NCBI GenBank assembly: GCA_040954595.2
Contig: CM082583.2
Coordinates: 1,684,925-1,748,924 of the forward strand
Reading direction: 5' to 3'
DNA length: 64,000 bases
DNA from: Balanoglossus misakiensis
Lineage: Eukaryota > Animalia > Hemichordata
The notes under the pieces were generated by a model. It saw nothing but the letters and a program-made list of their open reading frames with translations. It did no database searches and was not told the origin of the DNA. Positions 5,789 through 60,113 of this stretch are shown here, in pieces (the stretch's first letter is position 1; each line of letters begins with the position of its first letter). The position numbers and the translations under genes are program-made.

Positions 5789-6299
5789 ACTTCATCATAC
5801 TGTCAGGTTCAAAAATAACCACGAAACGAATTATTATGTGAAAGAATGCGTAAGACTACAATAAAATCACGCTCAACTTCAACTACACTCTGGGACTTCT
5901 CTCTTGTCCCTCGTATGAACTCACATGCCAACTCAAAGGGCCATTTTCATACGCCAGACCGTCTCCCTTGCGGTCATTAAAACATCACGACTTCATCACC
6001 AGACCGTCTCTCTTGCGGTCATCACAAAAACTTCAACAACTCCTCAAAAACCTATTAAACGTCACTACACTTCACGGCATCACTTCAACAAAAGAATACA
6101 CATTTACAATGTCGAAAACAACGCAAAAACTTGGTGGAAAACAATATCAAATCAAAAGCGGTTAATAACGGTCAGTCAACTCACGTCTACTAACTCTTCT
6201 TATGTGAAAGGATGCGTAAGACTACAATAAAACTCAAAGGGCCTCTCTTCAATGTTAGTCATCATACCCTTCCACCCTGCGATTTTTATGAACACTTTT

Positions 6300-10277: not shown

Positions 10278-13200
10278 GTGGCCAGCGTCGTGCCCATCAA
10301 TTTTGAGTGTTTGGTGGGGTCAACCTTTGCGTCAACATTGATTAACCAGGCCATGCAGAGCTAGTGGCCAGTGTCGTGCCCATCAATTTTGAGTGTTTGG
10401 TGGGGTCAACCTTTGCGTCAACATTGATTAACCAGGCCATGCAGAGCTAGTGGCCAGTGTCGTGCCCATCAATTTTGAGTGTTTGGTGGGGTCAGCCTTT
10501 GCGTCAACATTGATTAACCAGGCCATGCAGAGCTAGTGGCCAGTGTCGTGCCCATCAATTTTGAGTGTTTGGTGGGGTCAGCCTTTGCGTCAACATTGAT
10601 TAACCAGGCCATGCAGAGCTAGTGGCCAGTGTCGTGCCCATCAATTTTGAGTGTTTGGTGGGGTCAGCCTTTGCGTCAACATTGATTAACCAGGCCATGC
10701 AGAGCTAGTGGCCAGTGTCGTGCCCATCAATTTTGAGTGTTTGGTGGGGTCAGCCTTTGCGTCAACATTGATTAACCAGGCCATGCAGAGCTAGTGGCCA
10801 GTGTCGTGCCCATCAATTTTGAGTGTTTGGTGGGGTCAGCCTTTGCGTCAACATTGATTAACCAGGCCATGCAGAGCTAGTGGCCAGTGTCGTGCCCATC
10901 AATTTTGAGTGTTTGGTGGGGTCAGCCTTTGCGTCAACATTGATTAACCAGGCCATGCAGAGCTAGTGGCCAGTGTCGTGCCCATCAATTTTGAGTGTTT
11001 GGTGGGGTCAGCCTTTGCGTCAACATTGATTAACCAGGCCATGCAGAGCTAGTGGCCAGTGTCGTGCCCATCAATTTTGAGTGTTTGGTGGGGTCAGCCT
11101 TTGCGTCAACATTGATTAACCAGGCCATGCAGAGCTAGTGGCCAGTGTCGTGCCCATCAATTTTGAGTGTTTGGTGGGGTCAGCCTTTGCGTCAACATTG
11201 ATTAACCAGGCCATGCAGAGCTAGTGGCCAGTGTCGTGCCCATCAATTTTGAGTGTTTGGTGGGGTCAGCCTTTGCGTCAACATTGATTAACCAGGCCAT
11301 GCAGAGCTAGTGGCCAGTGTCGTGCCCATCAATTTTGAGTGTTTGGTGGGGTCAGCCTTTGCGTCAACATTGATTAACCAGGCCATGCAGAGCTAGTGGC
11401 CAGTGTCGTGCCCATCAATTTTGAGTGTTTGGTGGGGTCAGCCTTTGCGTCAACATTGATTAACCAGGCCATGCAGAGCTAGTGGCCAGTGTCGTGCCCA
11501 TCAATTTTGAGTGTTTGGTGGGGTCAGCCTTTGCGTCAACATTGATTAACCAGGCCATGCAGAGCTAGTGGCCAGTGTCGTGCCCATCAATTTTGAGTGT
11601 TTGGTGGGGTCAGCCTTTGCGTCAACATTGATTAACCAGGCCATGCAGAGCTAGTGGCCAGTGTCGTGCCCATCAATTTTGAGTGTTTGGTGGGGTCAGC
11701 CTTTGCGTCAACATTGATTAACCAGGCCATGCAGAGCTAGTGGCCAGTGTCGTGCCCATCAATTTTGAGTGTTTGGTGGGGTCAGCCTTTGCGTCAACAT
11801 TGATTAACCAGGCCATGCAGAGCTAGTGGCCAGTGTCGTGCCCATCAATTTTGAGTGTTTGGTGGGGTCAGCCTTTGCGTCAACATTGATTAACCAGGCC
11901 ATGCAGAGCTAGTGGCCAGTGTCGTGCCCATCAATTTTGAGTGTTTGGTGGGGTCAGCCTTTGCGTCAACATTGATTAACCAGGCCATGCAGAGCTAGTG
12001 GCCAGTGTCGTGCCCATCAATTTTGAGTGTTTGGTGGGGTCAGCCTTTGCGTCAACATTGATTAACCAGGCCATGCAGAGCTAGTGGCCAGTGTCGTGCC
12101 CATCAATTTTGAGTGTTTGGTGGGGTCAGCCTTTGCGTCAACATTGATTAACCAGGCCATGCAGAGCTAGTGGCCAGTGTCGTGCCCATCAATTTTGAGT
12201 GTTTGGTGGGGTCAGCCTTTGCGTCAACATTGATTAACCAGGCCATGCAGAGCTAGTGGCCAGTGTCGTGCCCATCAATTTTGAGTGTTTGGTGGGGTCA
12301 GCCTTTGCGTCAACATTGATTAACCAGGCCATGCAGAGCTAGTGGCCAGTGTCGTGCCCATCAATTTTGAGTGTTTGGTGGGGTCAGCCTTTGCGTCAAC
12401 ATTGATTAACCAGGCCATGCAGAGCTAGTGGCCAGTGTCGTGCCCATCAATTTTGAGTGTTTGGTGGGGTCAGCCTTTGCGTCAACATTGATTAACCAGG
12501 CCATGCAGAGCTAGTGGCCAGTGTCGTGCCCATCAATTTTGAGTGTTTGGTGGGGTCAGCCTTTGCGTCAACATTGATTAACCAGGCCATGCAGAGCTAG
12601 TGGCCAGTGTCGTGCCCATCAATTTTGAGTGTTTGGTGGGGTCAGCCTTTGCGTCAACATTGATTAACCAGGCCATGCAGAGCTAGTGGCCAGTGTCGTG
12701 CCCATCAATTTTGAGTGTTTGGTGGGGTCAGCCTTTGCGTCAACATTGATTAACCAGGCCATGCAGAGCTAGTGGCCAGTGTCGTGCCCATCAATTTTGA
12801 GTGTTTGGTGGGGTCAGCCTTTGCGTCAACATTGATTAACCAGGCCATGCAGAGCTAGTGGCCAGTGTCGTGCCCATCAATTTTGAGTGTTTGGTGGGGT
12901 CAGCCTTTGCGTCAACATTGATTAACCAGGCCATGCAGAGCTAGTGGCCAGTGTCGTGCCCATCAATTTTGAGTGTTTGGTGGGGTCAGCCTTTGCGTCA
13001 ACATTGATTAACCAGGCCATGCAGAGCTAGTGGCCAGTGTCGTGCCCATCAATTTTGAGTGTTTGGTGGGGTCAGCCTTTGCGTCAACATTGATTAACCA
13101 GGCCATGCAGAGCTAGTGGCCAGTGTCGTGCCCATCAATTTTGAGTGTTTGGTGGGGTCAGCCTTTGCGTCAACATTGATAAACCAGGCCATGCAGAGCT

Positions 13201-16200
13201 AGTGGCCAGTGTCGTGCCCATCAATTTTGAGTGTTTGGTGGGGTCAGCCTTTGCGTCAACATTGATTAACCAGGCCATGCAGAGCTAGTGGCCAGTGTCG
13301 TGCCCATCAATTTTGAGTGTTTGGTGGGGTCAGCCTTTGCGTCAACATTGATTAACCAGGCCATGCAGAGCTAGTGGCCAGTGTCGTGCCCATCAATTTT
13401 GAGTGTTTGGTGGGGTCAGCCTTTGCGTCAACATTGATTAACCAGGCCATGCAGAGCTAGTGGCCAGTGTCGTGCCCATCAATTTTGAGTCTTTGGTGGG
13501 GTCAGCCTTTGCGTCAACATTGATTAACCAGGCCATGCAGAGCTAGTGGCCAGTGTCGTGCCCATCAATTTTGAGTCTTTGGTGGGGTCAGCCTTTGCGT
13601 CAACATTGATTAACCAGGCCATGCAGAGCTAGTGGCCAGTGTCGTGCCCATCAATTTTGAGTGTTTGGTGGGGTCGCCTTTGCGTCAACATTGATTAACC
13701 AGGCCATGCAGAGCTAGTGGCCAGTGTCACGCCCATTAATTTTGAGTGTTTGGTGGGGTCAACCTTTGCGTCAACATTGATTAACCAGGCCATGCAGAGC
13801 TAGTGGCCAGTGTCGTGCCCATCAATTTTGAGTGTTTGGTGGGGTCGCCTTTGCGTCAACATTGATTAACCAGGCCATGCAGAGCTAGTGGCCAGTGTCG
13901 TGCCCATCAATTTTGAGTGTTTGGTGGGGTCAGCCTTTGCGTCAACATTGATTAACCAGGCCATGCAGAGCTAGTGGCCAGTGTCACGCCCATTAATTTT
14001 GAGTGTTTGGTGGGGTCAACCTTTGCGTCAACATTGATTAACCAGGCCATGCAGAGCTAGTGGCCAGTGTCGTGCCCATCAATTTTGAGTGTTTGGTGGG
14101 GTCGCCTTTGCGTCAACATTGATTAACCAGGCCATGCAGAGCTAGTGGCCAGTGTCGTGCCCATCAATTTTGAGTGTTTGGTGGGGTCAGCCTTTGCGTC
14201 AACATTGATTAACCAGGCCATGCAGAGCTAGTGGCCAGTGTCGTGCCCATCAATTTTGAGTGTTTGGTGGGGTCAGCCTTTGCGTCAACATTGATTAACC
14301 AGGCCATGCAGAGCTAGTGGCCAGTGTCGTGCCCATCAATTTTGAGTGTTTGGTGGGGTCAGCCTTTGCGTCAACATTGATTAACCAGGCCATGCAGAGC
14401 TAGTGGCCAGTGTCGTGCCCATCAATTTTGAGTGTTTGGTGGGGTCAGCCTTTGCGTCAACATTGATTAACCAGGCCATGCAGAGCTAGTGGCCAGTGTC
14501 GTGCCCATCAATTTTGAGTGTTTGGTGGGGTCAGCCTTTGCGTCAACATTGATTAACCAGGCCATGCAGAGCTAGTGGCCAGTGTCGTGCCCATCAATTT
14601 TGAGTGTTTGGTGGGGTCAACCTTTGCGTCAACATCGATTAACCAGGCCATGCAGAGCTAGTGGCCAGTGTCGTGCCCATCAATTTTGAGTGTTTGGTGG
14701 GGTAAACCTTTGCGTCAACATCGATTAACCAGGCCATGCAGAGCTAGTGGCCAGTGTCGTGCCCATCAATTTCGAGTGTTTGGTGGGGTCAACCTTTGCG
14801 TCAACATCGATTAACCAGGCCATGCAGAGCTAGTGGCCAGTGTCGTGCCCATCAATTTCGAGTGTTTGGTGGGGTCAACCTTTGCGTCAACATCGATTAA
14901 CCAGGCCATGCAGAGCTAGTGGCCAGTGTCGTGCCCATCAATTTTGAGTGTTTGGTGGGGTCAACCTTTGCGTCAACATCGATTAACCAGGCCATGCAGA
15001 GCTAGTGGCCAGTGTCGTGCCCATCAATTTTGAGTGTTTGGTGGGGTCAGCCTTTGCGTCAACATCGATTAACCAGGCCATGCAGAGCTAGTGGCCAGTG
15101 TCGTGCCCATCAATTTTGAGTGTTTGGTGGGGTCAGCCTTTGCGTCAACATCGATTAACCAGGCCATGCAGAGCTAGTGGCCAGTGTCGTGCCCATCAAT
15201 TTTGAGTGTTTGGTGGGGTCAACCTTTGCGTCAACATCGATTAACCAGGCCATGCAGAGCTAGTGGCCAGTGTCGTGCCCATCAATTTTGAGTGTTTGGT
15301 GGGGTCAACCTTTGCGTCAACATCGATTAACCAGGCCATGCAGAGCTAGTGGCCAGTGTCGTGCCCATCAATTTCGAGTGTTTGGTGGGGTCAACCTTTG
15401 CGTCAACATCGATTAACCAGGCCATGCAGAGCTAGTGGCCAGTGTCGTGCCCATCAATTTCGAGTGTTTGGTGGGGTCAACCTTTGCGTCAACATCGATT
15501 AACCAGGCCATGCAGAGCTAGTGGCCAGTGTCGTGCCCATCAATTTTGAGTGTTTGGTGGGGTCAGCCTTTGCGTCAACATCGATTAACCAGGCCATGCA
15601 GAGCTAGTGGCCAGTGTCGTGCCCATCAATTTTGAGTGTTTGGTGGGGTCAGCCTTTGCGTCAACATCGATTAACCAGGCCATGCAGAGCTAGTGGCCAG
15701 TGTCGTGCCCATCAATTTTGAGTGTTTGGTGGGGTCAGCCTTTGCGTCAACATCGATTAACCAGGCCATGCAGAGCTAGTGGCCAGTGTCGTGCCCATCA
15801 ATTTTGAGTGTTTGGTGGGGTCAGCCTTTGCGTCAACATCGATTAACCAGGCCATGCAGAGCTAGTGGCCAGTGTCGTGCCCATCAATTTTGAGTGTTTG
15901 GTGGGGTCAGCCTTTGCGTCAACATTGATTAACCAGGCCATGCAGAGCTAGTGGCCAGTGTCGTGCCCATCAATTTTGAGTGTTTGTTGGGGTCAGCCTT
16001 TGCGTCAACATTGATTAACCAGGCCATGCAGAGCTAGTGGCCAGTGTCGTGCCCATCAATTTTGAGTGTTTGGTGGGGTCAGCCTTTGCGTCAACATTGA
16101 TTAACCAGGCCATGCAGAGCTAGTGGCCAGTGTCGTGCCCATCAATTTTGAGTGTTTGGTGGGGTCAGCCTTTGCGTCAACATTGATTAACCAGGCCATG

Positions 16201-19060
16201 CAGAGCTAGTGGCCAGTGTCGTGCCCATCAATTTTGAGTGTTTGGTGGGGTCAGCCTTTGCGTCAACATTGATTAACCAGGCCATGCAGAGCTAGTGGCC
16301 AGTGTCGTGCCCATCAATTTTGAGTGTTTGGTGGGGTCAGCCTTTGCGTCAACATTGATTAACCAGGCCATGCAGAGCTAGTGGCCAGTGTCGTGCCCAT
16401 CAATTTTGAGTGTTTGGTGGGGTCAGCCTTTGCGTCAACATTGATTAACCAGGCCATGCAGAGCTAGTGGCCAGTGTCGTGCCCATCAATTTTGAGTGTT
16501 TGGTGGGGTCAGCCTTTGCGTCAACATTGATTAACCAGGCCATGCAGAGCTATGTCTTGTTCTCACTAAAAGTTTCGACACCAGTGTTATGCCAGTGTTT
16601 ACTCTCTGCAAACACAGGGGATTAGCCCACAGAATCTCCGTGCGTCCACACACTAAACTTTTGGCCACTGTTTTGAAATCAACACCGTCTAAATCGCCAT
16701 GTTTAGCAACACGGCAACTAACAAAATTGAGGACGTCGAGGACATTACAGCAACATGTTTCAGTTTCTATACCTGTATATGCGTTCTAGACGACTTTGTG
16801 ACAGTTTTGATAATGTTTAGAAGTAAATGAATGTTAATCCATAAATGGAAAATGCCTCAGCTTTTCGGTGATCGAGAGAACCTTCCGAAAGTTGGTAGCA
16901 GATAGAAGTGTTGCAGACCTGGCAAACTGCGAATGGTTTGAAAACCACTCGCGTCCAGTGTGATTGACTTAACAATGGAAACTGACCAAAGACAATGGGC
17001 TATACCTAATAAACATACCCAAAAGTCACTGCAGGGTGGCGCTTTTGAACGGTGTTTGTTTATCTTTGCGTTCTCACTGACTATTTGCGTCGGAGCGCTG
17101 GCCCAGCACTGGCCCTGACCCGCCACCCATCGCCGTCGCGAATCAACACCGGCGTAACACCGGCGTAAAGCGTTCTCACTTGTTTTTTTCCGTCGGTGTC
17201 AAATCTACACCGTTGTAGCACCGGTGTAAACGTGCCAGTGAGAACGCCACACTAGTGGCCAGTGTCGTGCCCATCAATTTTGAGTGTTTGGTGGGGTCAG
17301 CCTTTGCGTCAACATTGATTAACCAGGCCATGCAGAGCTAGTGGCCAGTGTCGTGCCCATCAATTTTGAGTGTTTGGTGGGGTCAGCCTTTGCGTCAACA
17401 TTGATTAACCAGGCCATGCAGAGCTAGTGGCCAGTGTCGTGCCCATCAATTTTGAGTGTTTGGTGGGGTCAGCCTTTGCGTCGACATTGATTAACCAGGC
17501 CATGCAGAGCTAGTGGCCAGTGTCGTGCCCATCAATTTTGAGTGTTTGGTGGGGTCAGCCTTTGCGTCGACATTGATTAACCAGGCCATGCAGAGCTAGT
17601 GGCCAGTGTCGTGCCCATCAATTTTGAGTGTTTGGTGGGGTCAGCCTTTGCGTCAACATTGATTAACCAGGCCATGCAGAGCTAGTGGCCAGTGTCGTGC
17701 CCATCAATTTTGAGTGTTTGGTGGGGTCAGCCTTTGCGTCAACATTGATTAACCAGGCCATGCAGAGCTAGTGGCCAGTGTCGTGCCCATCAATTTTGAG
17801 TGTTTGGTGGGGTCAGCCTTTGCGTCAACATTGATTAACCAGGCCATGCAGAGCTAGTGGCCAGTGTCGTGCCCATCAATTTTGAGTGTTTGGTGGGGTC
17901 AGCCTTTGCGTCAACATTGATTAACCAGGCCATGCAGAGCTAGTGGCCAGTGTCGTGCCCATCAATTTTGAGTGTTTGGTGGGGTCAGCCTTTGCGTCAA
18001 CATTGATTAACCAGGCCATGCAGAGCTAGTGGCCAGTGTCGTGCCCATCAATTTTGAGTGTTTGGTGGGGTCAGCCTTTGCGTCAACATTGATTAACCAG
18101 GCCATGCAGAGCTAGTGGCCAGTGTCGTGCCCATCAATTTTGAGTGTTTGGTGGGGTCAGCCTTTGCGTCAACATTGATTAACCAGGCCATGCAGAGCTA
18201 GTGGCCAGTGTCGTGCCCATCAATTTTGAGTGTTTGGTGGGGTCAGCCTTTGCGTCGACATTGATTAACCAGGCCATGCAGAGCTAGTGGCCAGTGTCGT
18301 GCCCATCAATTTTGAGAGTTTGGTGGGGTCAGCCTTTGCGTCGACATTGATTAACCAGGCCATGCAGAGCTAGTGGCCAGTGTCGTGCCCATCAATTTTG
18401 AGTGTTTGGTGGGGTCAGCCTTTGCGTAGACATTGATTAACCAGGCCATGCAGAGCTAGTGGCCAGTGTCGTGCCCATCAATTTTGAGTGTTTGGTGGGG
18501 TCAACCTTTGCGTCAACATCGATTAACCAGGCCATGCAGAGCTAGTGGCCAGTGTCGTGCCCATCAATTTTGAGTGTTTGGTGGGGTCAGCCTTTGCGTC
18601 AACATTGATTAACCAGGCCATGCAGAGCTAGTGGCCAGTGTCGTGCCCATCAATTTTGAGTGTTTGGTGGGGTCAGCCTTTGCGTCAACATTGATTAACC
18701 AGGCCATGCAGAGCTAGTGGCCAGTGTCGTGCCCATCAATTTTGAGTGTTTGGTGGGGTCAACCTTTGCGTCAACATCGATTAACCAGGCCATGCAGAGC
18801 TAGTGGCCAGTGTCGTGCCCATCAATTTTGAGTGTTTGGTGGGGTCAACCTTTGCGTCAACATCGATTAACCAGGCCATGCAGAGCTAGTGGCCAGTGTC
18901 GTGCCCATCAATTTTGAGTGTTTGGTGGGGTCAACCTTTGCGTCAACATCGATTAACCAGGCCATGCAGAGCTAGTGGCCAGTGTCGTGCCCATCAATTT
19001 TGAGTGTTTGGTGGGGTCAACCTTTGCGTCAACATTGATTAACCAGGCCATGCAGAGCTA
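10278..19060. repeat. Satellite array, 86-bp unit, about 94 copies (about 73 plus about 21), split by a MITE
   Basis: Unit CTAGTGGCCAGTGTCGTGCCCATCAATTTTGAGTGTTTGGTGGGGTCAGCCTTTGCGTCAACATTGATTAACCAGGCCATGCAGAG, period 86 (for example 10791 to 10877), head-to-tail with no spacers. Confidence 0.97.
16553..17251. mobile_element. MITE (699 bp) inserted in the satellite, 3-bp TSD CTA (PIF/Harbinger-like)
   Basis: Ends TGTCTTGTTCTCACT / AGTGAGAACGCCACA form imperfect TIRs. CTA is duplicated at 16550-16552 and 17252-17254, whereas every uninterrupted unit has a single CTA. Confidence 0.8.
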
Positions 19061-31657: not shown

Positions 31658-32657
31658 TTAATGTAAGGTAGAAGGTCGGGCGGTAGGAAGAGTTCACCAA
31701 AAGAGGGCGCATTTTATCATCCATTGATTTATACTGTGTACGAGCAGAGAAGCCTCAGTGTTCGCGGTTAGAACCGTATCGGTAAGACAAAGACAGAAGT
31801 GTTGACAGACAACAAACTTATTCAGTTTATATCATATAATTCTTACTGTAAAACGTTCCCTGAATAAAGCCTTGTGCTCATAAGAACATTGAAGATTGTC
31901 GCATACAGACCGACACCCTTTTATCTATTGTAGGTATTGAATGGAACGCTAAATACCTGTGTATTTCTTATTCATTAAGCAATGATGTAACACAACAAGT
32001 TTCGGACAGTGTGAAGAAAGGGCCAAAGCACTCTTGCAAGTTAGTGTGGTGTACTCTTTTCCAACACTGCTGCAAGCTGTTCAGCACCTGATGCTGCTTG
32101 TATCTCCGATGACAAATGGACAGTCTGTGTGCTGTCAAAGTAAATCCATCAATTTTGCGGAGCTGAAAGGAAAATGACAGCTTGTCAAACTCAAATCTGC
32201 CAGACGAAATAGGGAAAGAAATGCATAACAGGTAATCCACCATACTATGAATTTTAGCCAGCATCCTATGAAATGCGGTGAAACGGAACTGCAATTAATT
32301 TTAAATGAATTCTGCTCAAATTGTTTTCTTAGTTCTCAACATTGGATTGGAACCGTTAAATATAATGTACTGTATAACATTATCATATAGGTTAGTATGT
32401 CAAATATTTTTCCATTTGGCATTTTCTTCTTGAGGTCATTTCAACAGTATGCACACCACAGTTTGTGAGATATGGACAGAAACAAACTGGAATCTATGCA
32501 ATGTTATAATAGTATATTATTGTTAACAAGAAAGCGGCAACTCTCTACCTGGCAGAGAATAATGATAGTCTTTTTGAAAAAAAAGGGCGTGCTGAGGATA
32601 TGGTCAGTCAAAAACATACATGTATAAGGTATGCCTGAACTAATTTTTAACATGGTG

Positions 32658-32690
32658 CACAAGCGTTTGCCCCATAGTAACTTAGTTAGA
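32658..32690 (+). repeat. Left (gene 3'-side) bipartite TIR
   Basis: CACAAGC, then 15 bp, then ACTTAGTTAGA (starts 32680). Confidence 0.88.
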
Positions 32691-33246
32691 TTAAAATGGC
32701 CGCCATTTATGTAAGTGCGCCCTCAACAACTATCTTTGTGCGCATTCCCTGTAATGGGGAGGGCATTACATGCGCCTTGTTTGCATGATTTAAACATCAC
32801 TTAAAATGCACTTTCATGTATAGACTACCGATGAATTTCACTGTAATCGAACACTATATTATTTGTATTTCTATTTTGATCTTACAGTGAATAAAAATGA
32901 CCATTTGAAGCCAATCATTTACAATCACCACGTACCTGGCCTGAATGTTTGCTTTTATTATGTTCACAAACTTAACACACCATTGTTCTGGTTGTAAAGG
33001 CGGGTACAGGTTGGCTAGTAGTGAGGGGAACATGTACATTCAGTCTAGTTACTCGCTAAATTTTCAAGTACTTGGTACATTATCTGAAAGTCACACAATT
33101 ATTCACACAAGAGGCAATATGCAGGTTAAAGAGTTTTTATTATTAACATTTTACACATCAAATATATATGTACAAAATTGGCATGGTAACAATCACAAAA
33201 ATACTTTAAATCTTGCATTGTGATCTATTTACATTCGCATTTACAT

Positions 33247-33557
33247 TTACTTTTTATAGGGGCCTCTTGACTTGATTTCAGGTTTTGTATGTGTCGGGCT
33301 AGTCCTAATATGGTGGTCTTTCACTAGTTGCTCAAGTTTGTTCAGGCGGTCACCAGGCATACACGCATAGCTCACTGAAGCCTGGTTAAAGGCGTGGTGG
33401 ATTGACTCTATCCCCTGCTCGCCGAAGAACCCTAGCCCTCGTTTAAATAATCTGATCTTCTCCATTATGTGACACTCAAGCATGTGCAATTTTGGAAACA
33501 CACTTTCCTCTGGAAAATGTGTCCTATACAGGTTCATGAACCTGGATACGGCAGTAT
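33247..33557 (-). CDS. Transposase exon 10 with HxxxxH Zn ligands and catalytic Glu
   Basis: DTAVSRFMNLYRTHFPEESVFPKLHMLECH...GLGFFGEQGIESIHHAFN, then stop at 33247-33249. Confidence 0.88.
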
Positions 33558-33945
33558 CTGAAATAAATTATATTTGGAAATGTCAATATTTTTTACTTCA
33601 AAGTTATAATTTAGTTATTCAATGTTACAATAGTGATGTGCCATAAATGATAAGCATTATGTATTGTACGGCATACACTTTGGGAAAGGTATGGGTGGTG
33701 GAGAGGGGCGAATGGCCGGGAAGTGAGATGAGATGCGCGTGGTGTTGATACCAAATTCAAGTCTGATTTATTGTAACTTTACGCAAGCTATATATACATG
33801 TTGGTGAACCTTGACTTTTGTTCACACCTGATACCGGGAGATTCACACTTGACAGTGGGCTCAAGTTTGGTGACTGACTTATTCCCTGCTTGCTGTGTGC
33901 AAGTGGAAGAGGGGGTGGGGGTGCCTGCATGCATGCTGTACTTAC

Positions 33946-34129
33946 CCAATTCTTCAATTTCAATGTGTGTCAATTTTCTGCTGTGGGAATACTTGTTGTG
34001 GCAGTTTGCAAACTCCGTGAACAGTGGTTGGTGTTTGTGTACTATTTTCCGGGCTTTTGGGAGCAACTCTGGGCATACCTGCTCAGTCACATTTACAACA
34101 CTGTTGCATAGTAGATTCACATTTTGTGG
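33946..34129 (-). CDS. Transposase exon 9
   Basis: PQNVNLLCNS...LFTEFANCHNKYSHSRKLTHIEIEEL; acceptor TTCAG, donor GTAAGT. Confidence 0.8.
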
Positions 34130-34548
34130 CTGAAAAATAGGCAGTCCAATCATTAATCTTTTCATTTACAGGGCAAGTATAATGTTTGTTTTTTTCACTA
34201 TGAATTAAGCCTGTATTTCAAGACTGTAACTGATTAACTATATCAAATACTAAACACTTACATTTAACTAAAATCAAAGAATGTTATAAATGTTCTGTGA
34301 ATTAAAATTTGATTAAAGTATTTATTAATTCAACCTTCGGTTACTCACCAACTAGAAAAATATTGTTAAACATCCAACCTAAAAATAAAAAAAAACTAAC
34401 AGAAAAATGAAAAATAAAGATAAAATGTCCAAGGGAACTTGGCTATATATAAACTTTCAGTACAATTTATTACACAATTAGGGCAAACAAACTTCAACAA
34501 CTTCATGCATGGCAATTAAGTAACCATAACAATTATTCTTACACAGAC

Positions 34549-34701
34549 CTTGCAGCATCGGTTTACATGATTGCCTATGAATGACTGACTATGGTAGGCT
34601 TGCAAATAGACATTGATAGAAGCAAGTGCTACTTCAAGTCCCCTATGCAAGTATCCAGCTTGATGGGGAAGCTTTTTCTGCAATATTACAATTTCTGCAG
34701 C
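34549..34701 (-). CDS. Transposase exon 8 (not in the ORF track)
   Basis: AAEIVILQKKLPHQAGYLHRGLEVALASINVYLQAYHSQSFIGNHVNRCCK; acceptor TTTAG, donor AAG|GTCTGT. Confidence 0.75.
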
Positions 34702-34822
34702 CTAAAAGTTAAACACACCCAATGATTACATTCAAATGAAAAATTAGTCATGTTATACCTGAAAAGAAGACAAATCACATTTTTTTTTTATAAATCAGTA
34801 CCAAATATGATAATGCATTCAC

Positions 34823-35194
34823 CTTTTTGTCTGCAATATCAGAGAGTTTCTTTCTTTTACGTTCCATATGTTTTACTTGTCCAAGTGTTGGTGGCCAGTC
34901 CTCATCATCACTATCATCATCACTAGTATCAGTGAAGGCAGCTTCAATGTGGGATGTCAGTAAATCATACTCAACATGTATTTCATTAATCTCTGAATTG
35001 AGGTGAGATATCTTCGAAATGTGACTGACATATTCATCAAAGTGGGCAGGTTTCATGACTGGCACATCTATTTCCTCCCCCGCCCCCACTAAACGAGTGA
35101 AGATTTCGGCATCAAGTAGATGACAAGAATTCTGCAGGAGACGAAAGAGCCTCTGAAATATGCCCAGGGAGATGTGCAAAACTGGAATCGAAAC
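34823..35194 (-). CDS. Transposase exon 7 (LHISLG motif plus acidic helical insertion)
   Basis: VSIPVLHISLGIFQRLF...DTSDDDSDDED...DKK; acceptor CATAG, donor GTGAAT. Confidence 0.85.
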
Positions 35195-35295
35195 CTATGA
35201 GAGAAATTAAGCATAACACATTAATTATGACTTCTTGTTTTTATCTGAAATGAAGATAGAGAAAAATGAAATTGATACATCTATGAAGAACATAC

Positions 35296-35497
35296 CCTAC
35301 ACAGTGGAATTCTAAACATTTGATCCCTGACGCAATTGTAATACTCTTTAGCTTGAGTAAGGACCTTCCCTGCACTGACAAAATTATTGTGTGCATCTCT
35401 GATTGACTCTAGTGTTCTTGGTGGAATATCCGGCCGCTCTTCTGGTGGTAGGTTTGCTTGCTCTTTTGTGGTCAGACACCACAGGCAAAGTATCGTC
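35296..35497 (-). CDS. Transposase exon 6 with CxxC Zn ligands (-1 frameshift at 35487-35489)
   Basis: Adding one T gives GRYFCLWCLTTKEQ...PRTLESI...YNCVRDQMF. The exon is 202 nt where 203 is needed for phase. Confidence 0.8.
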
Positions 35498-35606
35498 CTG
35501 TTGATGAAACAAGGAAAAAAGACTGCCGACACATTCTATTAAAAAAAATGACATGCAAATATTTAGAAACATGTTACAATCAAAAGAATCAGCATGCAGC
35601 ACATAC

Positions 35607-35683
35607 CACTTGGACCAGACAATCCATACATCTTCACCAGAAATTCATAGTCACCTGCAAGCCAAACAAGAACTTGTGCATCT
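35607..35683 (-). CDS. Transposase exon 5 with second catalytic Asp
   Basis: DAQVLVWLAGDYEFLVKMYGLSGPSG; acceptor CACAG, donor GTATGT. Confidence 0.85.
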
Positions 35684-35956
35684 CTGTGGACAAAAAATAA
35701 ATACATAAAAACAAATGAGTATCAATGTTACCTTTCTACCTTATTTTCTATCTGTCTGTCCCCTCATTTTACATCCCAGGCTTTTCTTTCTGCCCCCATC
35801 TCTTTGTTTCACTTTGATCTGTTTGTCAGTGTATCCAATTGTGTTCTATTTTAATTTCAGTCTCTTTGTGTCTGTCTTCCTTCAGTTCCATTTGTCTGTT
35901 GTGTCAGTCTCTCTCTTTTTGCTAACAGAGATACATGTACTATGATTAATGCTTAC

Positions 35957-36202
35957 TTCCACCTTAGACCATTTAGTGAGTCAACTTGCCCACTGTTTAA
36001 CTTCATGGCAGTGTTTAGGTTGGTCAATTTATCCGGAGCTTCAAAAACACTCCAACACACAGTGTTGTTGATGCTGTTGAGGTGATCCACATTCATTATC
36101 TCAAATGCCCATTTCATGGAACCACCACCATGGTCACCTCCAACCTTTACCCAGACTTCAGAAGATGGAATAAGACCATCATGCCAGGTCAGTTTCTGTA
36201 GT
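35957..36202 (-). CDS. Transposase exon 4 with first catalytic Asp (not in the ORF track)
   Basis: Manual translation LQKLTWHDGLIPSSEVWVKVGGDHGGGSMKWAFEIMNVDHLNSINNTVCWSVFEAPDKLTNL. Acceptor TTTAG, donor GTAAGC. Asp codon at 36133-36135. Confidence 0.85.
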
Positions 36203-36496
36203 CTAAAGAGAGAAAAACTGGCTCAACCCTTAAATCAAAACCATGCAGCTTTACCAAGGATGTACCTCCAGGCGATACATGTGACCTTACATATTACAAT
36301 GAAAAAAAAAAATTAAGGTGTGCTAATGCATGTTTTCCTATTCAACAAGAAAAATTTGTGAAAACTCACCACAGTGATAAGGAGATAGAAATACAAGTCT
36401 TAAAAGGCAAGCTGCTATTTTACAAAGCCAGCCAGTTATGAAACACACAATCAACTATCTATAAAGTCAATAGCAGTAAAACAAAACAAATCTTAC

Positions 36497-36712
36497 CTGT
36501 CTAGGGTATCAAGTCTACCTATTACTGTTTCAACAAGATTAGATACAGCTACACATGGTGCCAGCCGTATTTCACTAAGTTTACCACTACCCGTACCATT
36601 TACTGTAAATGTGAAGGGTAGGTTCTTCATTTGGAGCTGAATCTCAAGTGACTTCATTCTCTCACGGTCTTTGTTTTCTCCTTCAAGTCGAATATTCCAC
36701 ATTCTTAGCCAT
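36497..36712 (-). CDS. Transposase exon 3 (acceptor mutated CAG>CGG)
   Basis: Open frame WLRMWNIRLE...GRLDTLD, donor AG|GTAAGA, phase matches both neighbours. Confidence 0.7.
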
Positions 36713-37132
36713 CCGCATTTGAAATGAAACTTCATATTTGATGAAACCTACAATCAGTGACCTAAGTGATTAATGTAGCACAGCTAGGTGACAGTTTAAG
36801 AAGTTTGAAATTTAACAACATAAAACCTCATTCTTTAAGCATAGAGATTATAATAAAATGTGATAATTTTTAGTTAATCATGCAGAATATCTCAGACAGC
36901 TATTGTAATTGCTAATAGGTATATATCATATTGTTGTTAAAACATCAATAAAACATGACAATTATTGCATAAAGAACAGATAGAAATTAAAGCTGCAAGC
37001 AGCATTGTCGGGCCCAAGCGCTGATCTCGAATTATATATGCACAGTATGAATGAGAAGAAACAGAATTTTCTATCGGGTGTATTATCTCATGACATAACA
37101 AGGACGTGTGCGCTTGGGCCCTAACAACTTAC

Positions 37133-37419
37133 CTTCTTATTTTCCGCATGGTTGACCAGGTGACCCCAACATCACTCTTTAAGAGAAGTCCAGCACCAGG
37201 TGGAATATCTGGACTGAGGCCGAGAGAAGATAGCAGGGATTCTTTTTCCTCCTTCTTCATCCTTTGGATTTCATTTCCTGTCTGAATGTGTGCTGATTTA
37301 CCACCACCGCTTACTTGGTGCCTCACTTCAGATAAGCATTTTGATCTTAAGACCAGAGTTTGCTTTGAACACTCAGAACTTTCCTTTCTTGGCTTCCGAA
37401 TTTTGGACAGCATAATTGG
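37133..37419 (-). CDS. Transposase exon 2 (basic helical region at the position of the RAG1 nonamer-binding domain)
   Basis: Acceptor TTGCAG|CCA, donor AG|GTAAGT; PIMLSKIRKPRK...VTWSTMRKIR. Confidence 0.75.
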
Positions 37420-37608
37420 CTGCAAGTACAAAAAATATCTTAAGTTTCTACAAGTATCGTCTACGCATCAATTTAAGTTATATTACACTGATGTAGCAGT
37501 ACGGTTATAACTAACAAAATCAATAATTGTTCCCCCTAGTCAAATCAAAAGTAAATACTCAAGGGTGAATTATTTTTAAGACAAGAATAAAGGAAGAAGT
37601 ATACTCAC

Positions 37609-38677
37609 TTGACCACCTGTTTTGAATTTAATTAAACCACTTGATTCAAATTCCAGCTTCTTCTTGACAATAGTTGTGGCGAGTTGTTCAAACATTGGCA
37701 GAGTGTGGATATCGGCTGATGTCTGCAGTAACGTTTTAGCGGCTTGAACAGGGGTTACTTCAGGTTTGCCAATCTCTTCATTTATTTGTGATTGTTGGGG
37801 ACTGGGATTATCAATACTGACCTGTCCCTTGTTGACACGCATGTTGAAGGGGCATGGTGAGGCATAATTATGTTCCTTGGCGATAGTTTTGAAGGCACAT
37901 TGATTTGTGTGAGAGCAAAGGTCTTGTAGTGGCACAACTTCTGAACAACCAGCATTTGCAATGTCACACACAATATTTAGAGACGACAGCATATTTGACA
38001 ATACTAATGGGACAATGACAATATCACCTGGCATAATACGTAGGCGACAGATGGGGAATGTGGTTGATTCTTCAAACCACTTACATAAACAAGTAGAACA
38101 AAAAACATGGGGCCCACTACACAGAAGTTGAACTGGCTCGTCAACAACATCTCGGCAAACTGGACATTCAAAATCTTGACTCGCAGAGGAAAAGCGTGAC
38201 CTTGACAAGTTTAATGCAGACCTTAGCTTCTTGCCAGCTTTCTGCTGTACAGCAAGGATACTGTTTTCTGATTGTATATGTCCTTGGTCTCCATCAAGTT
38301 TTTTGGTTTGTGTCATTGGAGGTCTTCCCCGGTTTTTTGCTGCTTTCCGCTTTCGTTCACTTTTGCAAAGAGTACACACACTGCATTCACCAAGTCTCGG
38401 ATGTTTTTTTCCAACCAGTTAACTGTACCCCATGATTGTACTGTTTACCTGTTTCTTTTGCCTTTGTAATAGATGTTATAAGCCGCTTGCAGTTACTACA
38501 GAAATGGGTTGGGTGAATGCCAGGGTCATCCGTTGAAATATCTATTTCAAAACATTCACCTAAAGCGTCTCCAATATTTGCGCACAGAAATGGCTTCTCT
38601 GCAAATTTACGGCTGCAAATCCGACATCTATTCAGCAATATGTTATTGTGGAACTCGAGAGATTTCCGCCCGGTCAT
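37609..38677 (-). CDS. Transposase exon 1: RAG1-like N-terminal Cys/His region, C3HC4 RING and Zn finger (+1 frameshift in A7 run at 38404-38410)
   Basis: ORFs 38387-38749 and 37576-38379 join to give WKKHPRLGECSVC if one A is removed. RING: CPVC...LLCSGPHVFCSTC...TFPIC. Zn finger: LNIVCDIANAGC...LCSHTNQC. Donor CAA|GTGAGT. Confidence 0.85.
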
Positions 38678-39290
38678 CGTACTGGCTGCAGCACCCGACA
38701 AATGTGCAGACGACAACGTAGTTCGATCAAATTTGGCGCCAGTGTACACGTAAACAATACAGTAACCATGGGCACGGTCAGCTTAAGGGGTCATCGAAGC
38801 ATCGAACCACACAACATATGCCGTTCAAAAAAAAAAAAACCCAAAGCAAGGAAAAAACACCCCGACAAAATCATCACACTCAAAACACAAAATATTCGAC
38901 AACGAACACATAAAAATCGGTTTGATTAAAATATAATTCGATTTTCGATGTTATCTTAGCTGTAAATTACAGTTCACAAAAACGGGATTCGATGCTGTTC
39001 ACTCGCCATTGTTTACATGTCGATTGCAAACGTACCTGCGTCATGATCCAAATGTCTTCCAAATCACGCGGCAAGATCCATATAAACTCCAAAAAATTAC
39101 AGTTTATGCGATAAAAAAGCATATTTCTCGAGTACGAACTCGCAAAAATATCGGAAACGGCTATATTCAGTGATGTTTTTCACCGATGGCCATGCATTCG
39201 CATGGGCGCGCACATGTTGATCTTGCAAAGTCTCGCCATATCACGCAATGGAACGTGAAGAAAATGGCTGTTGCTTTGTTATTTATTTCC

Positions 39291-39332
39291 TCCAACTAAG
39301 TAGGGCCTGCCGCTATGGCTAAAACGCTTGTG
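39291..39332 (-). repeat. Right (gene 5'-side) bipartite TIR
   Basis: Reverse complement reads CACAAGC, then 24 bp, then ACTTAGTTGGA. Confidence 0.88.
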
Positions 39333-40593
39333 GGTGTACATAAATATTTATGCATTGTCACAATGACTGGAGGTCTTTAAATGACCAAGCTGTATGGACA
39401 CCTCATTCAATGTTACATATATTTGTTATTACATGTTTTATTGAAATTGCCAGTTGTCTGTTTTAATTCTGGCAGTTCTGCTGTGTCTTTTGTCTTGCCC
39501 TGACAGAATGCAGTAATATTTGCAGTACAAGAGGAGTGTCAGTAAATAGTGGAGCAATATCTTTCTACGAATGTACTCATGCATTGCTCCAAAGTGAAGT
39601 ACATTCGCAAAACCAGTTTGGGAAATCGGGACTCTTTTCAAGATTATACCACATTTTTGTGGATGTCACATGACATGGAAACACTCTAGAATCACGATTG
39701 AGATAAGGTTTCGGTTTGATATACCACTTCCTTGTTATTTCAATCTGTATGTTTTCTTAACCCCCTCCCTCGAAAAAAGGTAATTGAGGTAATTGTAAAA
39801 TTACCTGAAAACAAACAGGCTACTCTAGCCTCCATTTTATGAGGTTTGTGATGTAACATATTTTGAATTTCGTGAATCGATCAAAAGTTTCCGTGCACCA
39901 ACTATCAAAACTACACCAAAAAATAATTTGGGCAATTCATAAGGAGAATCTAGTGGGTCGGCGGCTATAGAACTGACGTAAGTGTAAGTATCAGAGGATT
40001 GTGGGTACGAGGCTGGGAAGAGCAACACTCGAACACTCATGAAATCAACACGTGACGCCAAATTCTTTGTAATATGAACAGTGGAAAACTGCCATGCCAT
40101 CCCTCTAAGTGCAAACTTCCAAAGATTTCAATCTGGTGATATTTAAAAAAAATATTTTATTCAAATTCATGTGGTGATATTTAAAAAAAAATATTTTATT
40201 CAAATTCATGTTATAAATTAAACTTGCATCTATGATATAGAAATGACTCTGTCTTATATAACAAAAATACAAATAACTTGGTTAGATGACCAAAGATTTC
40301 CCATCTCGAAAAGTTTCTACCAAAATGACTAACTCCAAATCTGCTAAGAGAGCCCTAGCAAATTTAATCACTGCACATTACTCTCGATAAAACGAAATAT
40401 TGCGCATTCATTTTGTCCTTGAATTGAAATGCATGGCCAGTGTTCATAGACTTCACACACACAGGATGTTTAAGGAGTTGAATTGTTATTGACAGCGACC
40501 AGGTCGGTAGATTCTATAGGATGAAGAAAAAATGAAAAGACAGTCAGTACATAGCTAAATTCTCCTATACAAGGGCGTCTTCAATTGGTACAG

Positions 40594-56460: not shown

Positions 56461-57951
56461 TTAATCGTCGATCCCCTCCCCCTCGCAGTTCGGACAGTGG
56501 AAGGGATCAGTCGAGTTGACCTGCTTTTGGGTGAGATTGACGCATGTGCTGTGGAACCAGTCGTAACAGCTGTCACACTGGACCATCAGCTTCTCTGTGT
56601 CCGGCCCACGGCAGATACAGTAGGTCTGTTCCCGGTTTTTGTCCTGCGGATCAGGATCCCCACCCTTTAGGGGCAGTGACCTCTTGAATTTAACTATCCA
56701 GCTGGGCAGTTGCGCTTCCCTACACAACCTTATTCTGTCGTGGTTCGCGGTGGCGATGCGTCTCGGAAGTTTCACTCGGTACAAATATGGCGATAATTTC
56801 GCTATCACTATTCCTGGTCCTTTCCATGGGGGGCTCAGTTTTTTACATTTCCATCTCACCGTCACTGAGTCCAGAAGGTAGACGGGATCTCCGACTTCAT
56901 ATGAACGGAGTCGGGCCTTCAAGTCGTAGTCCCGCTTCATTCTTTCCTGGGTGACCTGCAGTTTTTCCTGAGCGAGGTCATGGGCTTCTTTGATGGCGCT
57001 CCCCAGGCTGCTCACATATTCTTCATGGTCTTGGGCTGGCGTTGGTTTCCCGAAGACCAGGTCGGCCGGTTGGTTCACTTCCCGCCCCAGCATAAGGCGA
57101 TTAGGTGTGAATCCAGTATTTCTGTTTACGGAGGTCCGAATGGCTCCGGCGATTTGGGGTAGGAATTTGTCCCACTCGTTCTGTTTGCATCCATGAGGGT
57201 CCGGTTTTGCCGCTCCATCTGGCTGTTCGCGGAACAGCTGACTTTCGAAATTACTGCCTCTATCTGTGAATATCTCGAATGGCCATCCGAATCGAGAAAA
57301 GAATTCCCCTACAGCTGCCTTAGCGGTTGCCTCTGCCGTTTGGGTAGGCAGTGGAATGCACTCTACCCACTTGGTGAATTGGTCGACCATGACTAGGATA
57401 TATTCGTTTTTTCGGGGTGTCCGGGGCAGTGGTCCAAGGAAGTCCAGATGTACCCTTTCCATAGGTGATCCCACGTGGTATCGGGTCAGAGGGCACCTCG
57501 CATGTCACTGTGGTTTCTTGTGCTTGTTGCAGTCGTGGCACGAGGCTACGTAGCTGCGTACATCATCTGCCATCCGATGCCAGTGGTACTTCATTTGGAG
57601 TCTGGCCAGCGTCCGTTGCACGCCCTGATGTCCCGCTGAGGGGATCGCATGGTTCAGTTCAATTACTTCCGATATCATTGTTCTGGGGATGACCAGTTTT
57701 CCTTCGCCCCCGTCCTCGGATTTCCTCCGGAGTACTGGCATCTTCGGGTCCACATAATATATCTCGCGGTTTATCCAGGCATGTTTTGCGGCGGTGCTGA
57801 GTAGTTCCAATGCGCTTTCCGCGGGGGGTTGACCAGTATCCAGCCATTCCAGTATCGGCCGTAGATCGGCATCCTCCTGATGTTGCCGGTGTATCGTTTC
57901 CGAGGTTTCTCGCCACGGCGTGTCGGTCTCTGGCGAGCTGCTCCTGGTCAC
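56461..57951 (-). pseudogene. Gypsy integrase (HHCC plus core, frameshifted and deleted near the catalytic Glu) with C-terminal PHD finger
   Basis: NHAIPSAGHQG...CHDC, ERVHLDFLGPLP, WKGPGIV, and terminal YCICRGPDTEKLMVQCDSCYDWFHSTCVNL...FHCPNC (C4HC3). Confidence 0.9.
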
Positions 57952-58190
57952 CGTGCATACCTTGGGGTCCTCCTATTCCGCCTGTGTACCTTCACTGAAG
58001 TAGGTGTCCTCTCCCATGGAGTCTATTCCGATTGACTTTAGTATTTCGTCGAAATCGAATCCTTCTCCTGGGTCCTCTGGGGGGTCTGCGAGGTGGTCAC
58101 TCGCTTCGTCTTCTTCGCTGCCTAAGTTTACCGTGCAGACGTCTTGCCTAATGTCATTGGATGGTTGTGAGGCTAACGGTATTACTTCGT

Positions 58191-58796
58191 CTACCCCGGT
58201 GACGAAGTCTCCCCAATTTCTCGTTGGCAATAGTCACATCCGCCGCAGGGAAGTTCGTCCGGCGTAACGCTGTGGCGGTAGTGTCCCTGCGGTTCAATTC
58301 TGGATAGGGCATCCGCGTTGAGGTGTTTGTTCCCCGGCCTATGCTGAACCGTCATGTTGTACTGGCTAAGTTCTTCCAACCACCGGGCCAATTGTCCTTG
58401 GGGCGCTTTAAACCTCAGCAGCCAGGCCAGACTGCTGTGGTCCGTCCGTTTTATGAAATGGTTCCCCAGCAAGTAGTGTCGGAATAACCGGGTAAATCGT
58501 ACTACTGCTAGGAGTTCTTTTCGGGTCGTGCAGTACCTTGTTTGTTCGGGTGTTAATGCGAAGCTGGCGTATGCGCTCACTCGTTCTTCTCCATCCTGCA
58601 CCTGGAGAAGTTCCGCTCCCACGGCAATGTCCGATGCGTCCGTGTCCAATGTGAACAGGTCTTTTGGGTTCGGTAACGTGAGTACCGGCGCCGATGTTAA
58701 GCAATCTTTTAGCGCCTCGAAGGCCAGCCGTTGCTCTCCGCCCCACTTGAAAGGCTTTTTTCCGTAACTGCGTACAGCGGGCGGCCAACTTGGCAT
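58191..58796 (-). pseudogene. Gypsy RNase H
   Basis: FTLDTDASDIAVGAEL, YCTTRKELLAVV, TDHSSL, NADALSR. Confidence 0.92.
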
Positions 58797-58827
58797 GATC
58801 CTTTATAAACGAGCGGTGTTAATTGGC

Positions 58828-59700
58828 TTACCCTGCGAAAAGTTCCACCTCCTTGGTGTTTTTTGGTGTCGGCCAGTTGCGTACCACGTCAACGGAACGC
58901 GGGTCCAGTCCTATGGTTCCTTTGCGGACAATCCGCCCCAGGAACTCCACCTCTGTCTGAAACAGTTCACACTTGCGGGGGCGTAGTTTCAACCTGTATT
59001 CCCGGATCCGGGTGAACACGTCTCGCAGATTCTGGAGATGGTTTGCAAAGTCCGCCCCAAGTACCATGATGTCGTCTAAAAATGCTAGTACTACCTCCCA
59101 TGTCAGCCCACGCAGCACCAGATTCATGGCTCGCGAGTATGTGGCAGTGGTGTTGCACAGGGCGAAGGGCATACGGGCGAATTCATACAGCCCGTACTTT
59201 GTGGTAAAGGCAGTCTTCTTGCGGTCCTCTTTGTCCACTTGTATTTGCCAGTACGCTGAATTGGCATCTAGTTTCGAGAACCACTCGTTCCCGGCCAGCG
59301 TGTCCATGCAGTCCTCTATCAGCGGCAAGGGGAATACGTCTTTTCCGATCACATTGTTCAGCGACTGATAGTCGACGCACCAGCGGACTGTCCCGTCCCT
59401 CTTCCTTACCAATACTGGTGCCGAAGCCCATTCTGATGTTGAAGGTTGGATTACCCCTGACCGCAGCATTTTCTTGAGGTGGGCCTCCTCCTCCCCCGCG
59501 AAGCGTAGTGGGGTTCGGCGCATCCTCTGCTTCACTGGTCGCGCGTCCCCTGTATCGATACTGTGCGCAAGGGCTGTGAAGTTCCCCAGGTCGTATTCAT
59601 TTGCAGCAAAGACATCCTGGAACTCGATTAGTAGCTCTTTCATTTCATGGGACTGTTTCTCCGTCAGATTGGCTGCTGATTTTTCTGACAATTCCCTCAA
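58828..59700 (-). pseudogene. Gypsy reverse transcriptase
   Basis: RT motifs including AFLDDIMVLG. Confidence 0.92.
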
Positions 59701-60113
59701 GTGGTCTGGGAGCTCGTCTTCGCCATGTGGTTAAGTTTCTGTGAGTAGTTCAAGCTCGTTGACTGTGCCTGTGGCGATTATTCTCACATCCTGAAGGAAC
59801 GAACCGAATTGAAGTAGCTGTAACAGTATAGAAAACATTTTCCAATTTCCGAAAAGTAGCCGTTTTTTAAACTTTTTTCAAGGAAATTAGTGTTTTGTTC
59901 ACAGTACAATATATTTCGATATTTTTCTATGATTATTTTCAAGATGTTTGCGAGTGTGCAGAAAGAAAAGAATAAACTGTGAAATTTCCATAGAAATAAT
60001 GAAGGAGCCATCTTTGGGTTGTATGGATTTGAATATTTCATTGAAAAAAACTAATTATTAAATTATGAATTCAATTAATAGTACAATTTGCAAAAATTGC
60101 TAGTCACTCCAGA

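Follow-up and report, generated by a model that had tools for sequence, protein, structure and literature searches.

The 64,000-nucleotide stretch of Balanoglossus misakiensis DNA analyzed here (the window; assembly GCA_040954595.2, contig CM082583.2, positions 1,684,925–1,748,924 of the forward strand) harbors what is almost certainly a single-gene cut-and-paste transposon of the Chapaev group. The element spans positions 32658–39332 (6675 bp) and is delimited by CACAAGCGTTT...AAACGCTTGTG. Its one gene codes for a Chapa zinc finger, a RING and a predicted DDE (Asp-Asp-Glu) transposase core, arranged in the order known from RAG1, and the reading frame of this copy is broken. The two ends are unequal: when aligned with each other they share a short inner motif, ACTTAGTT, which begins 23 nt in on the left side and 32 nt in on the right. 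Taken as a whole, the locus is probably best explained by a broken Chapaev insertion together with an end-pairing mechanism, which is set out below.

The ends of the transposon are perfect inverted repeats of 11 bp, CACAAGCGTTT being read inward from both sides, and have the 5'-CAC...GTG-3' form of Chapaev (CMC) termini. In the 64-kb window this is the sole CAC-starting 11-bp inverted pair that is flanked by a 4-bp direct repeat and lies within 15 kb, and a comparable CAC inverted pair with a 4-bp flank appeared in none of 200 simulated 12-kb sequences. GGTG adjoins the element on the left and on the right. The target-site duplication (TSD) is 4 bp long, since the 5-bp flanks differ (TGGTG vs GGTGT); a duplication of 5 bp was rejected on the unequal fifth flanking base. 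The corresponding empty site is present in public contigs of X1, X2, X3 and X4 (X1 and X2 represent one sample, X3 and X4 a second one), which run from position 32653 straight into 39333. They omit 6679 bases (6675 + 4) and keep a single GGTG, the four letters of which fit either side. The initial annotation had proposed a 6,675-bp unit with GGTG on both sides, a 4-bp duplication and a search for an empty site with one GGTG; the inverted ends and the empty site now place the boundaries exactly where it had put them.

The empty site is probably paralogous, i.e. another copy of a host repeat, because the flanks belong to a deeper, higher-copy repeat: their depth in the X1 and X2 contigs exceeds that of the element by a factor of several to tens. 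In X1, contig depth (which is not a copy number) amounts to about 270–400 for the element and 45 for a diverged relative, and reaches thousands for the flanks. The host repeat occupies about 32300–32653 and 39337–39700 of the window, with the element nested inside it; for this repeat family no Pfam match was found in six flank frames, and no TSD-flanked inverted repeat was found to enclose it. In a second organism (X3/X4), one contig of 1461 nt also has this empty site, differing by 4 substitutions and 1 gap across ~720 aligned bases, and may represent contamination or a shared repeat. Within the 64-kb window there is no second copy of the element, either as DNA or as protein.

The transposase is encoded by one minus-strand gene of 10 exons (38677–33247; Table 1) and, once two frame breaks are bridged, comprises 1038 residues. 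All nine donors are GT and eight of the nine acceptors are AG, in agreement with the single spliced gene first proposed from scattered open reading frames. Residues 7–1033 of the model align with P0157 (XP_070571112.1, Ptychodera flava, 1029 residues) at 34.5% identity, and crinoid and sponge proteins also align over most of its length. With exon 4 alone as the query, 744 representatives were retrieved at E ≤ 0.001; this search and the near full-length Ptychodera flava alignment lend the exon model independent support. Word-indexed protein searches with single exons gave no match, an alignment-based word-indexed search returned three Ptychodera proteins, and exon 4 alone had no match among solved structures. 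Viral contigs yielded 41 pattern matches, none of which was confirmed. No RNA dataset was listed as containing the element, which has no bearing on its expression.

Table 1. Features of the Chapaev element and of its target site, in window coordinates (residue numbers refer to the 10-exon model).
Feature	Coordinates	Strand	Evidence
TSD GGTG, left copy	32654..32657	.	flank comparison; empty site with one copy
Terminal inverted repeat CACAAGCGTTT, short end, 3' of gene	32658..32668	+	end alignment
Inner motif ACTTAGTT, starts 23 nt from short end	32680..32687	+	end alignment, shuffle tests
Exon 10, residues 936–1038: H(4)H motif H960/H965; GEQGIES with E982 and E986; stop codon	33247..33557	-	
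Exon 9, residues 875–935: helical part of core	33946..34129	-	
Exon 8, residues 824–874: FIGNH motif	34549..34701	-	
Exon 7, residues 700–823: LH motif, long helical insertion	34823..35194	-	
Exon 6, residues 632–699: C(2)C motif; frame broken by missing base near 35488	35296..35497	-	
Exon 5, residues 606–631: putative second catalytic Asp D617 (from alignment)	35607..35683	-	
Exon 4, residues 524–605: putative first catalytic Asp D547 (from alignment); DUF1280 match, E 3.1e-11	35957..36202	-	
Exon 3, residues 452–523; acceptor GG in window, AG in X1/X2 contigs	36497..36712	-	
MITE-like repeat, 112 bp, 12-bp inverted ends, in intron 2	37010..37121	.	contig depth, inverted-repeat check
Exon 2, residues 357–451: predicted counterpart of RAG1 nonamer-binding and dimerisation domains	37133..37419	-	
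Exon 1, residues 1–356: Chapa/NZD double zinc finger (~10–101, type I ligands), RING (~171–210), further zinc finger	37609..38677	-	
Inner motif ACTTAGTT, starts 32 nt from long end	39294..39301	-	end alignment, shuffle tests
Terminal inverted repeat, long end, 5' of gene	39322..39332	-	end alignment
TSD GGTG, right copy	39333..39336	.	flank comparison; empty site

The N-terminal domain is that of a Chapaev protein, with a match to the Chapa family PF12560 (E 5.1e-07), and the RAG1 NZD structure 21wb also matches the exon-1 zinc finger (E 1.6e-4). The zinc ligands are H10, C18, C21, C60, C63, H92, C98 and C101; this arrangement, with one N-terminal His, corresponds to type I of a 2026 preprint, in which the link between Chapa and NZD is treated structurally. 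The RING that follows matches RING families at E 2.7e-05. In this copy, where one ligand is Phe, the match stays under the curated cut-offs, while in P0157 it is above the family cut-off, which places the element in the RING-bearing subgroup of Chapaevs. The core matches DUF1280 (PF06918) in exon 4 with 43.8 bits (cut-off 25), a family that has been equated with Chapaev transposases (PMC3985635). In 12 long relatives DUF1280 is found in all, PF12560 in 9 and a RING family in 7.

The DDE triad and the C(2)C, LH and H(4)H motifs expected of a Chapaev core are all present, the catalytic residues being assigned by alignment; E986 is the presumed catalytic Glu. Residues D547, D617, C636, C639, L705 and H706 are invariant in ten of ten relatives, and H965, E982 and E986 are kept in nine, the tenth having a gap. 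The element thus carries every Chapaev hallmark described in the consulted text of PMC4079192 (CAC...GTG termini, a TSD of 3–4 bp and the C(2)C, LH and H(4)H motifs). Two related groups were rejected: Chapaev3, which needs a 3-bp TWA duplication and has no RING, as against the 4-bp GGTG and the RING seen here, and Transib, which has a core without Chapa and RING and a 5-bp TSD, as against the Chapa domain, RING and 4-bp TSD of this element. With DUF1280 above its cut-off, the hallmark motifs and the 4-bp TSD, the assignment to the Chapaev side made in the initial annotation is upheld, as is its view that the RAG1 domain layout is carried in a single-gene unit (Chapa, RING and core in one gene). 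The novelty it had considered for this architecture is not: Chapa, RING and core were published together in 2015 (PMC4411706), and the layout is common in databases.

Structural comparison with RAG1 and HzTransib, suggested at the outset, was made with a predicted model of P0157, the closest full-length relative (mean predicted local distance difference test score, pLDDT, 82.9). The core is predicted to have the DDE fold of the RAG1/Transib type. The model matches RAG1 (6dbx) with a Z score of 29.1, a root mean square deviation (rmsd) of 4.5 and 456 aligned residues at 15% identity, BbRAG1L (6b40) with Z 25.1, rmsd 3.4 and 457 aligned residues, and HzTransib (6pqx) with Z 24.3, rmsd 3.5 and 412 aligned residues; across the three the core identity is 13–16%. 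The RING of RAG1 (1rmd) is matched with Z 10.9. Several whole-model alignments also span RAG1 residues 391–458, the nonamer-binding domain (NBD), with rmsd values of 8–12. For the isolated exon-2 model RAG1 is the top row, at a non-significant E of 1.6, and no Foldseek match was obtained at E ≤ 0.001. Behind the LH motif, exon 7 (residues about 700–830) contains a long insertion of two helices, which is found family-wide and matches only unrelated helical bundles.

Such a fold, in combination with the domain order of RAG1, could also be expected of a RAG1L/ProtoRAG-type element that lost RAG2 and would stand as a closer 'missing link' to RAG1. The family profile does match RAG1 (E 3.4e-29), the predicted fold scores RAG1 slightly higher than HzTransib, and the atlas look-alikes include clusters of RAG1 (0.92–0.94). 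The profile match, however, is confined to RAG1 residues 101–387 and ends before the core, and the core itself matches the Chapaev family DUF1280. It is only 15–16% identical to RAG1 and BbRAG1L, compared with the more than 30% reported between TransibSU and RAG1 (PMC4411706). The TSD is 4 bp, whereas RAGL duplications are 5 bp (PMC7204232), and no kelch or RAG2 family was found in 24 plus-strand frames of 62–121 aa, one gene filling the element. The absence of RAG2 from these frames, the 4-bp TSD and the remote core together set the element apart from RAG1L despite the shared fold and domain order; the RAG1L/ProtoRAG reading is already largely refuted, and we regard it as very improbable.

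The Chapaev element was initially described as complete, which is true of its ends and domain content and does not hold for the reading frame. The frame is shifted twice, by one surplus base within a run of T near 38404 (exon 1) and by a missing base near 35488 (exon 6), the exon-3 acceptor (36714–36713) is GG instead of AG, and the RING ligand at residue 207 is Phe (Cys in 8 of 10 relatives). The X1/X2 contigs have no extra base and show the AG acceptor and the RING Cys; the comparison rows for X1/X2 do not cover the site of the missing base. They also carry changes of their own (C244F in X1, L418P, Y946N). The coding differences listed between the window and X1/X2 number 14, 11 of them non-synonymous and 3 synonymous, and over 1662 bp the window differs from X1 by 9 substitutions and 1 gap. 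An intact and active element, with the lesions introduced by assembly errors in the window, would agree with the position of the extra base in a homopolymer, with the undamaged sites in X1/X2 and with the perfect ends and TSD. It is nevertheless unlikely, as two of the lesions are substitutions and the differences between window and X1 go both ways at conserved residues, in a roughly neutral ratio. Because the differences are bidirectional and roughly neutral, separate decay fits better than sequencing error, and we read the window and X1/X2 versions as young copies or alleles decaying separately. Judged from its sequence, the window copy is dead or nearly so, and could only be mobile with transposase supplied by another copy.

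The unequal spacing of the inner motif, on which the initial annotation had not remarked, was followed in relatives obtained from a metagenome scan, in which 201 related loci were confirmed, 80 were kept and 17 had paired ends. An exact 4-bp TSD is present in 10 of these 17, and a 5-bp one in none. After removal of L017 and L059 as doubtful (2 mismatches, no TSD) and of L022, L035 and L071 as duplicates or near-copies, 12 families remained. With at most one mismatch, ACTTAG occurs 16 times in these families, 14 times at positions 21–23 or 32–33. The long/short layout, with one ACTTAG at each position, is found in 5 of the 12 (shuffle mean 0.008; 0 of 3000 shuffles reach 5). In a motif-free test the best shared 8-mer is offset by 9–12 nt in 7 of 13 elements (shuffle mean 1.9; 0/150), and the 6 elements whose shared 8-mer is perfect are all among them. 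A wider single-end scan, partly overlapping the same loci, has the motif at 22 in 7 of 14 distinct 5' candidates and at 32–33 in 6 of 18 distinct 3' candidates. The ends can accordingly be described as two-part, with putative spacers that differ by about one helical turn, as in RAG-like systems.

The main alternative is that of an ordinary Chapaev, in which the inner motif serves as a simple subterminal binding site, or as one for a host factor, and the spacings merely keep the same face of the helix; we give it a substantial chance, somewhat short of even. A shift of ~10 bp preserves the helical phase without any long/short rule, and 7 of 12 families have a degenerate motif. The side of the gene on which the short end is found also varies, being 3' in the window and L003 and 5' in the other families, and the NBD* of ProtoRAG alone binds DNA non-specifically (PMC8289069). 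Two observations speak against it. In the 12 families and the window, the best motif match (≤1 mismatch) is never equally placed on both ends. In addition, when the TSDs are oriented so that the short end is leftmost, NGTG is found in 6 of 11 exact 4-bp duplications and its reverse in none (L018, L021, L024, L054, L056, L063, L072, L073, L074, L077 and the window, L072 being an addition to the set; the polarity of some families was assigned by relatedness, and most insertions come from few assemblies). This bias beside the short end suggests that the two ends are handled differently. Concerning polarity, the 3' ends of L001 and L010 resemble short ends by eye, and other lineages may have the same short-end-3' arrangement as the window. 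L003 (138–4366) is a distant element without a TSD that groups with the RING-less protein P0145; it has a 13-bp perfect inner repeat with a 10-nt offset between the ends.

Several points weigh against a pairing rule between unequal ends. For the window taken by itself, the shared 8-mer would be expected by chance at a level of about 0.02, and its offset of 9 is under one helical turn. The motif is not at both positions in 7 of the 12 families with at most one mismatch, and in 5 of the 12 with at most two. The position bins were set after the ends of the relatives had been seen, so the position histogram and the motif-free test weigh more than the layout count. Independent cases are few, as the positives amount to about four lineages, two of them in one clade, and a single clade takes in 11 of the 12 families, in a tree that is made up of database relatives only and contains no RAG1, Transib or named Repbase Chapaev cores. 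The inner motif is not rich in A, and where the RAG1 NBD has its GRPR motif this protein has none. Finally, no provably intact copy was seen: the X1/X2 versions escape some lesions and bear others. On balance we consider the chances of a functional role for the end asymmetry to be about even.

If the unequal ends are functional, an intact member of the family would operate as follows. A transposase dimer would bind both CAC ends, the short end likely being paired with the long one through the inner motif. Excision would be carried out by the predicted RAG1-type DDE core, presumably with hairpin-type cleavage at CAC, by analogy with RAG and Transib, and insertion with a 4-base stagger would produce the 4-bp TSD. 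From the same analogy, a hinged NBD-like dimer would read the inner ACTTAG motif and absorb the difference of 9–12 bp without RAG2. The nonamers of the recombination signal sequences (RSS) are at positions 20 and 31, nearly those of the inner motif in this element. The NBD dimer of RAG1 is hinged and accommodates the 12/23 length difference by pivoting (PMC10629977). The reading of the inner motif by the NBD-like region is what we infer, since the RAG1 row for the isolated domain is non-significant and GRPR is missing. Tentatively, and with rather less than even confidence, we propose that RING-type Chapaevs and their kin use a single protein to follow a 12/23-like rule, under which a short end (21–23) would have to pair with a long end (31–33), the polarity would orient the target (NGTG by the short end), and the design, which would need no RAG2, would be older than the split between Chapaev and Transib/RAG.

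[quoted passage not shown] Supplementary file 5 of that paper aligns seven Chapa + RING Repbase families (Chapaev-1/2_BF, -1/2_NV and -4/6/7_HM) with RAG1, and the ligand pattern of the present element agrees with the published alignment by eye. The order of Chapa zinc finger, RING, further zinc finger and DDE core is the same, and the CAC...GTG termini, the 4-bp TSD and the C(2)C, LH and H(4)H motifs are shared with Chapaevs generally (PMC4079192). The element differs from known Chapaevs in representing a new family, the closest database proteins being 35–44% identical (Repbase was outside this comparison), and it has ten exons and, at 6.7 kb, exceeds most of the related elements found here (about 4.2–4.8 kb). 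The consulted text of PMC4411706 says nothing of an inner motif with long and short spacing. Among the papers listed by literature searches, none describes an asymmetry of Chapaev ends; Repbase, Repbase Reports, Dfam, Panchin and Moroz 2008 and supplementary file 1 of PMC4079192, which may describe it, were outside the search.

With RAG1 and RAG1L/ProtoRAG the element has in common the domain order, the predicted core fold and the CAC ends, and with RAG and RAGL also two-part ends with unequal spacers, as in the 12/23 RSS. The ends of PflRAGL-A show an asymmetry of 10 bp, and the 4/13 spacers of AanRAGL a difference of 9 bp, equal to that of this element (PMC10629977, PMC7204232, PMC8289069, PMC9435367). 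Unlike RAG1 and RAGL, it has no RAG2, a TSD of 4 instead of 5 bp, a core identity of about 15%, ACTTAG in place of an A-rich nonamer, and no GRPR at the start of the NBD. Transib resembles it in the single gene, the CAC ends, the predicted core fold and, for some families, the 12/23-like ends (PMC1131882), and differs in being devoid of Chapa/NZD and RING; the Transib TSD is canonically 5 bp, with exceptions in bioRxiv 2026.08.26.747230. N-RAG-TP of Aplysia likewise combines a RAG1-like N-terminal zinc finger with a transposon, but the review that covers it (PMC8355894), in the part consulted, gives only the sequence similar to the RAG1 N-terminus, whereas the present element has a RING and a full core. 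According to the same 2021 review, asymmetry of the 12/23 type was known only from RAG and some Transibs; later papers describe it also in RAGL and propose it as ancestral to RAGL and subgroup I Transib.

Further repeats occur in and around the element. The 112-bp repeat in intron 2 resembles a miniature inverted-repeat transposable element (MITE) and reaches a depth of 5e4–2e5 in X1/X2; the X1/X2 version of the transposon probably carries it too, since the element contigs break at both its sides. A second, less deep internal repeat is found in intron 9 (about 33690–33830), and contigs end loosely on either side of it. Over about 34702–35008, X1/X2 also have a diverged relative of the element at about one sixth of the depth; in X2 it shows 30 substitutions and 14 gaps over 295 nt. 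Elsewhere, the window contains a tandem array at 10278–19060 (86-bp unit, about 102 copies), a long interspersed nuclear element (LINE)-type endonuclease and reverse transcriptase in pieces at 6231–8826 and, on the minus strand at 56461–59730, the pol region of a long terminal repeat (LTR) retrotransposon (reverse transcriptase, RNase H, integrase) with a PHD finger at the end.

As an instance of RAG1-like architecture the element adds little, the same architecture having already been used in PMC4411706 to argue the origin of the RAG1 N-terminus; its unequal ends matter more than its domains. A conserved asymmetry of one helical turn in Chapaev, the outgroup, would, if true, push this asymmetry further back and separate it from RAG2. 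Should the 12/23-like rule be true as well, single-gene elements with the full RAG1 domain order would be the simplest system in which to study its origin.

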